Virus record (IMG/VR): IMGVR_UViG_3300043446_004500
Coordinates: 64,001-128,000 of that record
Strand: one strand, 5' to 3'
DNA length: 64,000 nt
Source: a virus
Made by a program: the position numbers and the translations under genes. Positions 11,681-12,918 of this stretch are shown here, piece by piece (position 1 is the first letter of the stretch; each line of letters starts with the position of its first letter). Below the pieces are notes generated by a model. The model had not been told where the DNA came from and did not search any database. It saw only the letters and a list, made by a program, of their open reading frames with translations.

Positions 11681-11707
11681 AAAGGAGGGGTAAAACTCTC
11701 CTTTTTT
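11681..11707 (+). terminator. rho-independent terminator
   Basis: AAAGGAGGG-gtaaaa-CTCTCCTTTTTT. Confidence 0.65.
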
Positions 11708-11737
11708 AATAAATACATTTGCTCATGCAAAAGAGAA

Positions 11738-12439
11738 ATGCAAATAGATCTTCATAACTTTTTTAGATATTATGATGAAAAGAATCCCAAACACGTTGCG
11801 GCAGTAGAGCAACTTGAAAAGGATTTGCTCTTGAAAGCACAAGGTCTGATGCAAGATGATGCAAATTGGGTAAGAATCTATAGAACAAAACCAGAAGCAC
11901 CAAAATCAAATATTCTTGCGGTTCCATTTTACCCACAAACAGACAACTACAGGGATGCAAATAGAACCTGCAATTCTTCTTCCTGTGCAATGTGCCTTGA
12001 GTATTTTAAACCAGGAACTTTAAAAGGAGCAAAAGGCGATGATGCCTATGTTCAAAAAGTTTTTGCAATTGGTGACTCAACTGATCACTTGGTTCAAACC
12101 CGTGTGCTGGCGTCTTATGATGTTCAGTCATCTTTTAGTTACAGCCTCTCTTTTGATGATCTTGATAATGAGTTATCCAACAATAGACCTGTTGTCATTG
12201 GTATTTTACATAGGGGTCCTATATCTGCTCCTACTGGTGGGCACATGATTGTAGTTATTGGCAAAACTCCAGCAGGAGATTATGTTGTAAATGATCCTTA
12301 TGGTTCTTTAAATGATGGATATACTGGTGCGGTAATTAATGGTAAAGGTGTAATATACAAGAAATCTGAACTAGTTCGTAGATGGACTCCAGATGGTCCT
12401 AAATCTGGTTGGGGAAGAATTTTCCGAACAAAAAAGTAG
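11738..12439 (+). CDS. C39-like cysteine peptidase (putative cell-wall peptidase)
   Basis: Q.DN...RTCNSSSCAM, GGHMIVV, VNDPYG catalytic C/H/D; late-promoter ATAAATA upstream. Confidence 0.8.
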   Translation: MQIDLHNFFRYYDEKNPKHVAAVEQLEKDLLLKAQGLMQDDANWVRIYRTKPEAPKSNILAVPFYPQTDNYRDANRTCNSSSCAMCLEYFKPGTLKGAKGDDAYVQKVFAIGDSTDHLVQTRVLASYDVQSSFSYSLSFDDLDNELSNNRPVVIGILHRGPISAPTGGHMIVVIGKTPAGDYVVNDPYGSLNDGYTGAVINGKGVIYKKSELVRRWTPDGPKSGWGRIFRTKK

Positions 12440-12918
12440 AATCAACATTGCAAGGCAGTATCCCTCAATGTGGTGTTGATTTAATCAAACAATTTGAGGG
12501 ATGTCACTTGAATGCTTATCCTGATCCTTTAACTGGAGGATTGCCTATTACAATAGGGTGGGGAAGCACTAAAGATTTTGATGGATCTTTCTTTAAGATG
12601 GGAAGAAAAATAACACAACAGTATGCAGATAAACTGTTAATTTATAGTTTAAAAGTAAGATTTATTCCTTTATTAGAAAAAATACCTTATTGGAATGAAA
12701 TGAATGAAAATCAACAAGGAGCACTTATTTCTTTTGCTTATAATCTTGGTGCTAGTTTTTACGGGTCTCCCAATTTTAATAGTATAAGTAAAGTTCTTAA
12801 ATATAAGCAATGGAATAAAGTTCCTGATACTTTGTATCTTTATAGGAATCCTGGAAGTAAAGTTGAAGAAGGATTGATGAAAAGAAGAAAAACTGAGGGA
12901 CAACTTTGGATGAATTAA
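12409..12918 (+). CDS. GH24 phage lysozyme (endolysin); probably the C-terminal part of a -1 frameshift fusion
   Basis: LIKQFEGC...AYPD...TIGWGST, ALISFAYNLG, GL.KRR..E; no ATG start upstream of the catalytic Glu. Confidence 0.88.
   Translation: MGKNFPNKKVESTLQGSIPQCGVDLIKQFEGCHLNAYPDPLTGGLPITIGWGSTKDFDGSFFKMGRKITQQYADKLLIYSLKVRFIPLLEKIPYWNEMNENQQGALISFAYNLGASFYGSPNFNSISKVLKYKQWNKVPDTLYLYRNPGSKVEEGLMKRRKTEGQLWMN

Follow-up and report, generated by a model that had tools for sequence, protein, structure and literature searches.

Recoding is well known in phage tail chaperones, in dnaX and in insertion sequences. In IS3-family elements such as IS911 and IS150, the OrfA/OrfAB pair carries an A_AAA_AAG heptamer near the end of the upstream open reading frame (ORF), next to a 0-frame stop and ahead of a 3' stem-loop or pseudoknot; the upstream ORF alone gives the short product, and the long product is a trans-frame fusion with a second catalytic domain. 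Escherichia coli dnaX, which encodes tau and gamma, uses the same heptamer with a 3' stem-loop to make two proteins that share their N-terminus, and depends on a single tRNA-Lys(UUU) reading AAG. Tail chaperones of the G/GT type, in lambda and many tailed phages, are made as a short and a C-terminally extended protein through a conserved -1 frameshift close to the ORF end, and in some lineages a fused or split gene has taken the place of the frameshift. Among endolysins, the clostridial CTP1L and CD27L and the enterococcal Lys170 exist as long and short isoforms by way of an internal start, and these forms share a domain and can hetero-oligomerise. A review covers -1 frameshifting in the IS3 family and dnaX (PMC5009743), and the frameshift of phage tail assembly chaperones is discussed in PMC10885494. 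Here we analysed a lysis locus in a 64,000-nucleotide stretch of viral DNA (IMG/VR record IMGVR_UViG_3300043446_004500, positions 64,001 to 128,000), referred to below as the window, in which a papain-like cysteine peptidase and a GH24 lysozyme are encoded in two successive frames. We conclude that the two are very probably a single lysis gene, joined by a programmed -1 ribosomal frameshift that yields two products.

The locus belongs to the known -1 frameshift cassettes of the dnaX/IS3 type. The peptidase ORF ends in ACA AAA AAG TAG, and the heptamer A_AAA_AAG can be read directly from the letters, in phase and abutting the stop. The lysozyme lies in the -1 frame relative to the peptidase, in an ORF listed as 12409-12918, and upstream of its catalytic Glu codon (GAG 12496-12498) this frame holds no ATG or GTG and only two TTG codons, at 12409 and 12448. 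The original prediction, which was made from the sequence of the window alone, had placed the heptamer at 12430-12436 before the stop, had put the lysozyme in the -1 frame without an ATG before its Glu, and had proposed a 393-residue fusion; the sequence reads as it said and all its coordinates are correct. The features of the locus, all on the plus strand and in window coordinates, are as follows.

11738..12439, plus strand: 0-frame ORF of the N-terminal module and peptidase, the short product; 233 aa, papain-like (C39-like) cysteine peptidase, stop TAG at 12437-12439
11738..11902, plus strand: N-terminal helical module (NTD), about 55 aa, common to both predicted products and without a known family
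12430..12436, plus strand: slippery heptamer A_AAA_AAG, in phase with the peptidase frame, read directly
12437..12439, plus strand: 0-frame stop TAG, directly after the heptamer
12439..12482, plus strand: stem 1, the putative stimulatory structure; 12439-12452 with 12469-12482, 14 bp, 16-nt loop
12460..12502, plus strand: candidate stem 2 of an H-type pseudoknot; 12460-12468 (in the stem 1 loop) with 12494-12502 (Phe-Glu-Gly codons), 9 bp
12436..12918, plus strand: -1 frame segment of linker and GH24 lysozyme, 160 aa; stop TAA at 12916-12918, Glu codon at 12496-12498

According to the mechanism that we propose, ribosomes that reach A_AAA_AAG would have the stem, which begins at 12439, at their mRNA entry channel. 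The majority would terminate at the adjacent TAG and release the 233-residue NTD-peptidase. In a fraction, the two Lys-tRNAs would slip back by one base (AAA-AAG to AAA-AAA), an event that the 3' stem and possibly the neighbouring stop would favour, and decoding would resume at GTA GAA, run through a short linker and enter the GH24 lysozyme. The predicted long product is an NTD-peptidase-lysozyme of 393 residues (233 + 160) with the junction ...RTKK-VEST.... Because the lysozyme has no conserved start codon, it would be made only as a fusion in the window phage. Slippage on the ribosome is what we infer from the comparisons below; the fixed product ratio and high efficiency that came with the original prediction are suppositions.

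Relatives were collected in two ways. A protein search with the peptidase as query, in which the heptamer played no part, yielded 80 IMG/VR loci with 77-84% identity; together with six isolate records and the window, this gave 72 loci with both domains and 55 distinct junctions. Every one of the 72 loci that lacks an ATG or GTG overlapping the peptidase stop carries A_AAA_AAG, 0 or 3 nt before the stop, and every locus that lacks the heptamer has such an ATG or GTG. Counted by distinct junctions of this set, the heptamer is present in 40 of 40 without an overlapping start codon, and the codon 5' of AAA AAG is always NNA (GTA, GCA, ACA or GAA, for V, A, T or E). In most loci a TGA closes the -1 frame just 10 nt upstream of the 0-frame stop, so a shift is possible only on the heptamer. 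Peptidase-only loci (n = 15, namely 14 metagenomic contigs and the cultured phage S-SZBM1, which has the peptidase alone and no heptamer) end in ...GRVFS or ...GRVFQP, without the Lys-Lys heptamer. A scan of DNA for the pattern GWGR-x-F-x-x followed by AAAAAAG and a stop matched at least 119 contigs, and in at least 116 of these the -1 frame encodes a lysozyme (156-176 aa when complete in the contig, less in a few contigs). For comparison, the strand of the phage genome that is read in the window contains 72 copies of AAAAAAG and a single copy of AAAAAAGTAG. Judged from these sequences, the arrangement is conserved far beyond chance, and the expectation of the original prediction that homologues would keep the heptamer-stop and the -1 register was borne out in the cultured phage S-PM2 and in the metagenomic contigs.

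Pooling the protein-retrieved set with the pattern-scan matches listed gave 91 distinct junctions, which bear on whether the lysozyme could instead be a separate protein. Its translation would then start independently at a rare or non-canonical codon (TTG 12448, ATC, ATT or similar), or reinitiate there after termination of the peptidase, and the stem would serve only to couple the two translation events. The window does have TTG at 12409 and 12448; some relatives have a GTG that overlaps a TGA stop (L082-L085, L103, L114) or an ATG just past the stop (L031, L098, L199), and those with an ATGA overlap show that separate expression works in this family. Against this, 44 of the 91 junctions are devoid of ATG, GTG and TTG upstream of the catalytic Glu, and in another 14 such codons lie only 7 aa or less from it. 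Both window TTGs, which had been named as possible rival starts, were rejected as lysozyme starts: they are unique to the window or not conserved (relatives have CCA or TCA), and TTG 12448 sits inside stem 1. Independent initiation would also leave unexplained why A_AAA_AAG is strictly conserved at synonymous sites, why the cultured phage S-CAM7 has a different slippery run in its place, why the overlap window spans 10 nt, and why the first -1 codons (V-E) are homologous to the linker of in-frame fusions. We consider separate expression improbable in the window phage.

All cultured relatives that we examined belong to the Kyanoviridae. S-PM2 has the junction GCA AAA AAG TAA, a -1 lysozyme frame free of ATG, GTG and TTG up to the catalytic Glu, and a stem of 11 bp; the record of a spontaneous deletion mutant of S-PM2 (LN828717) has a junction identical to that of the first S-PM2 record. 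Both isolates of S-CAM7 (56% identity) have a different slippery run, GTT TTT TTT (U_UUU_UUU, within T8), in the same -1 register and again without a start codon, followed 5 nt downstream by an 8-bp stem (GTAGAACC/GGTTCTAC). The T8-type loci noted are L206 1891-1938, L209 1391-1438, L210 and L211; in addition to the S-CAM7 isolates, the S-CAM7 peptidase retrieved two contigs of this type.

Hard-wired fusions, which the original prediction had suggested looking for, were found in close relatives. ACG-2014f, from a group closely related to the S-CAM7 type, has both domains in a single ORF of 405 aa, and a search with the S-CAM7 peptidase retrieved eight IMG/VR contigs that also encode both in frame, as proteins of 398-405 aa. 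In an alignment, the linker of these fusions, ...FDAKVEEKK..., matches the trans-frame junction ...FDVKK|VE..., so that the very first -1 codons look translated. These in-frame cyanophage fusions (the ACG-2014f group and the protein family phrog_3617, with S-CREM1 in reversed order) have the same two domains and the same NTD as the window locus and a linker homologous to its junction; unlike it, they consist of one ORF with one product and lack the cassette of heptamer, stop and stem. In S-CREM1 the single ORF runs from lysozyme to peptidase. In DSL-LC02 and DSL-LC03, the peptidase and the lysozyme are two well separated genes, and in S-SRM01 AAAAAAG is present, but an ATGA overlap supplies the lysozyme with an ATG. 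Loci of the S-SRM01 type (L001 2190-2204; L022, L023, L055) keep the in-phase A_AAA_AAG together with their own lysozyme ATG and have no stem; in these loci the heptamer is a leftover, or else it still allows some fusion to be made by a second, low-level route. As a separate observation, the NTD-peptidase of S-H34 (L207 1183-2451) is fused in frame to a different C-terminal domain, which had no Pfam match at E 0.001 and a motif that, by eye, we take to resemble GH19 endolysins; the peptidase has thus been combined with more than one kind of glycosidase.

The fused relatives also raise the question of whether the window frameshift is an artefact, its true run being A7, or a fusion gene that was recently broken and is being lost. 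One extra A would indeed restore a single ORF, as in the relatives. Contigs from four sequencing runs of three studies nevertheless span 12430-12436 without a gap (X5 record 9, X6 record 19, X7 record 23, X3 record 4) and show A6, as do both S-PM2 records and more than 100 assemblies from many samples. Both domains are full length with their catalytic residues retained, and in every lineage a stop comes exactly behind the heptamer. We therefore rejected a sequencing or assembly error, which had been put forward as a possible refutation of the frameshift, and regard artefact and decay together as scarcely credible.

Another way to reach the long product would be transcriptional slippage, in which RNA polymerase lengthens the A6 run by one A, or the T8 run of S-CAM7 by one U, so that some of the mRNAs encode the fusion in frame and the ribosomes do not shift. 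An extra A would give exactly the same fusion frame, and the S-CAM7 homopolymer is longer and nearer to known slipping lengths. Six A, on the other hand, is short, since efficient slippage usually takes about 8-9; all 91 junctions of the pooled set have exactly six A and then a G, in the X_XXY_YYZ phase, and the DNA contigs have A6 only. Moreover, a covarying 3' stem is a hallmark of ribosomal shifting and has no evident role for the polymerase. Slippage of the polymerase is thus very unlikely to be what joins the two frames, and we return to slippage of the ribosome.

The RNA structure was analysed by folding the 75 nt 3' of the heptamer for each locus. Stem 1 of the window has 14 bp, including four G.U pairs, and a folding free energy of -13.0 kcal/mol; its 3' arm consists of the CGVDLI codons at the start of the lysozyme domain. 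The original prediction had described a stem-loop of AATCAACA (12440-47) with TGTTGATT (12474-81). This pairing is real and forms the core of the 14-bp helix, whereas the inner ACATTG/CAATGT register that it proposed is not the conserved one. Nearly all loci without their own lysozyme start form one long helix, with the linker just past the stop as 5' arm and codons of the first lysozyme helix (CGVDLI, GVELIK, VGIxLI and so on) as 3' arm. At least six unrelated arm pairs form the helix at the same place, among them GAAUCAACACCACA / UGUGGUGUUGAUUU, GCCAACUAA / UUAGUUGGC, AGUUCUAUUC / GGAAUAGAACU, the S-PM2 pair AGCUCUACUUCC / GGAGUAGAGCU and the S-CAM7 pair GUAGAACC / GGUUCUAC. Stems of at least 8 bp, starting 3-9 nt after the heptamer, are present in 83 of the 91 junctions. 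The longest helix that starts within 10 nt of the heptamer averages 12.1 bp in loci without their own start (6.2 bp after shuffling) versus 6.2-7.7 bp in loci with one, which lack the stem.

Covariation was assessed in the window class (20 distinct sequences, alignment A1), where 98.9% of the cells of stem 1 are paired. The check for hairpin covariation that the original prediction had proposed turned out in its favour: four pairs of stem 1 show compensatory changes on both sides, which none of 500 shuffles matched, and sliding the partner by 1-3 columns lowers pairing to 34-47%. The candidate stem 2 (-11.6 kcal/mol) is paired in 97.8% of cells in relatives, with one-sided changes only and both arms coding, and it was not seen in other linker classes. 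An H-type pseudoknot made of stems 1 and 2 is therefore possible on the alignment.

An upstream stimulator found no such support. The original prediction had included a Shine-Dalgarno (SD)-like element, GGGGAAG (12411-12417), about 12 nt upstream of the heptamer. The motif is where it was said to be, but it corresponds to the conserved Gly-Trp-Gly-Arg (GWGR) codons, changes at synonymous sites to GGGGTAG or GGGGACG in relatives, also occurs in relatives without the heptamer and has no match to GGAGG. We rejected it as a part of the signal.

The stop codon and the tRNA supply were also considered. TAG follows the heptamer in 74 of the 91 distinct junctions (81%), compared with 9% of long ORFs; in the phage genome it is the rarest stop, ending 8 of 86 long ORFs. 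This preference may reflect the G that opens stem 1, the GTA-GAA that encodes the V-E of the linker, or termination by release factor 1 only. Codon usage in the genome is 0.35 for GTA, 0.58 for GCA, 0.71 for AAA and 0.29 for AAG, and compared with this the invariable NNA before AAA AAG speaks for constraint on synonymous sites. None of the 11 tRNA genes of the phage is for Lys, and in the Cyanobium metagenome-assembled genome (MAG) with the closest cellular psbA (91% identity), from a candidate host clade, tRNA-Lys(UUU) is the only tRNA-Lys among 41 tRNA matches. A single tRNA-Lys(UUU) makes A_AAA_AAG very shifty in E. coli, as work on dnaX has established, and the tRNA supply hints at conditions that suit shifting here as well.

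Several points weigh against a programmed frameshift. GTG or TTG codons lie at least 8 aa upstream of the Glu in 28 of the 91 junctions, and ATG in 5, so that some lineages could also start the lysozyme independently; many of these distal GTG/TTG codons are in or beside the 3' arm of the stem. Five junctions (S-SRM01, L022, L082, L085, L084) keep a slippery heptamer, AAAAAAA in one of them, despite an ATG or GTG of their own, which means that the heptamer alone is no proof of use. The spacer between heptamer and stem 1 is 2 nt in the window class, where 5-8 nt is usual, and three weak outer pairs of stem 1 would need to be open at slippage. Stem 1 contains four G.U pairs, and the minimum-free-energy fold of the window picks the stem 2 helix instead; stem 1 was chosen over this single-sequence fold because of the comparison across relatives. 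The tRNA hint comes from one incomplete MAG of a candidate host clade. Finally, the evidence is computational throughout. What computation does establish is how the sequence is built, that it is conserved, that the stem covaries and that relatives fused in frame exist.

At the protein level, the peptidase matches Peptidase_C39_2 (PF13529) over aa 60-188 (E 1e-12; 49.2 bits against a cut-off of 24), and its Cys78 (TGC 11969-11971), His169 (CAC 12242-12244) and Asp186 are unchanged in 23 peptidase relatives; a sequence search of the PDB with the peptidase gave no match. The lysozyme matches Phage_lysozyme (PF00959; E 2e-20; 73.6 bits against a cut-off of 22.3) and, in the PDB, the GH24 lysozymes 9kbq, 6et6 and 2anv (P22 lysozyme). 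Its catalytic motif, FEG-CHLNAYP-D, keeps the Glu and, after 8 residues (nine positions on), the Asp. The PHROG family phrog_3617 (405 positions) is collinear with both window ORFs, the peptidase matching positions 1-235 and the lysozyme 243-404. For a structural view, AlphaFold was run on a natural in-frame fused homologue, L213, standing in for the trans-frame protein of the window. The model has two separate domains at a mean predicted local distance difference test (pLDDT) score of 78. Its C-terminal domain resembles the GH24 endolysins AbLys1 (8app), PHAb10 (9kbq), P22 (2anv) and R21 (3hde), with template modelling scores of up to 0.90, normalised to the target, and its N-terminal domain resembles the C39-like peptidase 3erv, staphopain and other papain-like proteases. 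The peptidase presumably cleaves the peptide stem of peptidoglycan, and both products would act on the host cell wall at lysis.

The first ~55 residues of both predicted products form a small helical module with the motif MxIDLHNFF.YYDEKNPKH...W..IYR, for which a Pfam search found nothing significant. This module also stands at the start of the separate lysozyme genes of DSL-LC02 and DSL-LC03 (54% identity, E 2e-17; L004 2568-2720 and L005 2275-2425), and the longer N-terminal extension of L029-type lysozymes has no detectable similarity to it (BLAST E 22). Structure prediction of an NTD homodimer gave an interaction prediction score from aligned errors (ipSAE) of 0.63 (median of three runs) versus 0.00 for the best of three controls, with at least 98% agreement in contacts between runs and pLDDT of at least 80. 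When the tool was calibrated, 20 of 30 proteins with structures solved as pairs scored this high, compared with 1 of 23 whose structures were solved as single chains. The modelling supports dimerisation of the NTD, and the short and long forms may pair with each other because the NTD is predicted to dimerise. As a tentative idea, which we hold to be rather doubtful, the frameshift might set the composition of a lysin complex beyond the ratio of free enzymes: NTD dimers would assemble short and long forms into homo- and heterodimers, and in the split-gene relatives DSL-LC02 and DSL-LC03 the NTD on each enzyme would pair peptidase with lysozyme non-covalently. Fusion, frameshift and NTD pairing would then be three interchangeable means of linking peptidase and lysozyme action on the cyanobacterial wall, which is thick and highly cross-linked.

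The source phage is a T4-like cyanophage from lake water. The window is part of a phage record of 153,677 bp with 35% G+C, the same DNA is carried by freshwater metagenome runs (no RNA data set is listed among its carriers), and psbA, hli and peroxiredoxin genes adjoin the lysin locus, according to the ORF list and Pfam. At 11681-11715, 3' of the peroxiredoxin gene, we noticed by eye a terminator-like hairpin, AAGGAG...CTCCTTTTTT, followed by TAATAAATA, which we take to be one mismatch away from the T4 late-promoter box TATAAATA; on this reading by eye, the lysin locus may be a late transcription unit of its own. One of the contigs, L267 (JBIKLC010000084.1), is filed in a Rubrivivax MAG from a lake metagenome. 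Its psbA shares 89% identity with that of the phage, and the contig probably stems from a cyanophage or cyanobacterium and was misbinned.

Set beside the described systems, the locus differs from IS3-family elements in that it encodes cell-wall hydrolases where those encode a transposase, in that no SD-like upstream stimulator is supported, and in that the 3' arm of the stem is made of codons within the conserved first helix of the second enzyme domain. Frameshifting in dnaX yields the shorter protein, with a contribution from an upstream SD-like element; here it would yield the longer one, and the 0-frame stop abuts the heptamer. The tail chaperones are structural, use another slippery sequence and as a rule have no strong 3' structure. 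The internal-start endolysins keep to one frame and share a C-terminal wall-binding domain; here the two forms would arise by frameshifting and share the NTD and peptidase. Our full-text literature search, which did not extend to a 1994 paper about a lysin of lactococcal origin that others cite as a case of lysin frameshifting, found no endolysin made by frameshifting and no programmed frameshift in genes of cyanophages; the cases that it did return concern tail chaperones and the like.

Existing annotations miss the proposed fusion. The S-PM2 protein p157 is annotated as a 72-aa 'putative lysin' and the S-CAM7 lysin gp246 is truncated at 90 aa, both called from an internal ATG; the first ~80-90 lysozyme codons, including the catalytic Glu, are left as unannotated 'intergenic' DNA (S-PM2, L002 2190-2460; S-CAM7, L206 1908-2145). 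In metagenome annotations, too, the lysozyme is split off or truncated. If the frameshift is real, annotations of the lysis enzyme have been wrong for about twenty years in a large group of T4-like cyanophages from fresh water and the sea, and gene callers and lysin-mining pipelines should join both ORFs. It would also provide a conserved, structure-stimulated -1 signal with which to study recoding on cyanobacterial ribosomes. For the biology of these phages, it would reveal a natural series that runs from in-frame fusions through a frameshift with two kinds of slippery site to split genes, and it would pose the question of why the ratio of the two wall-cutting activities should be tuned.

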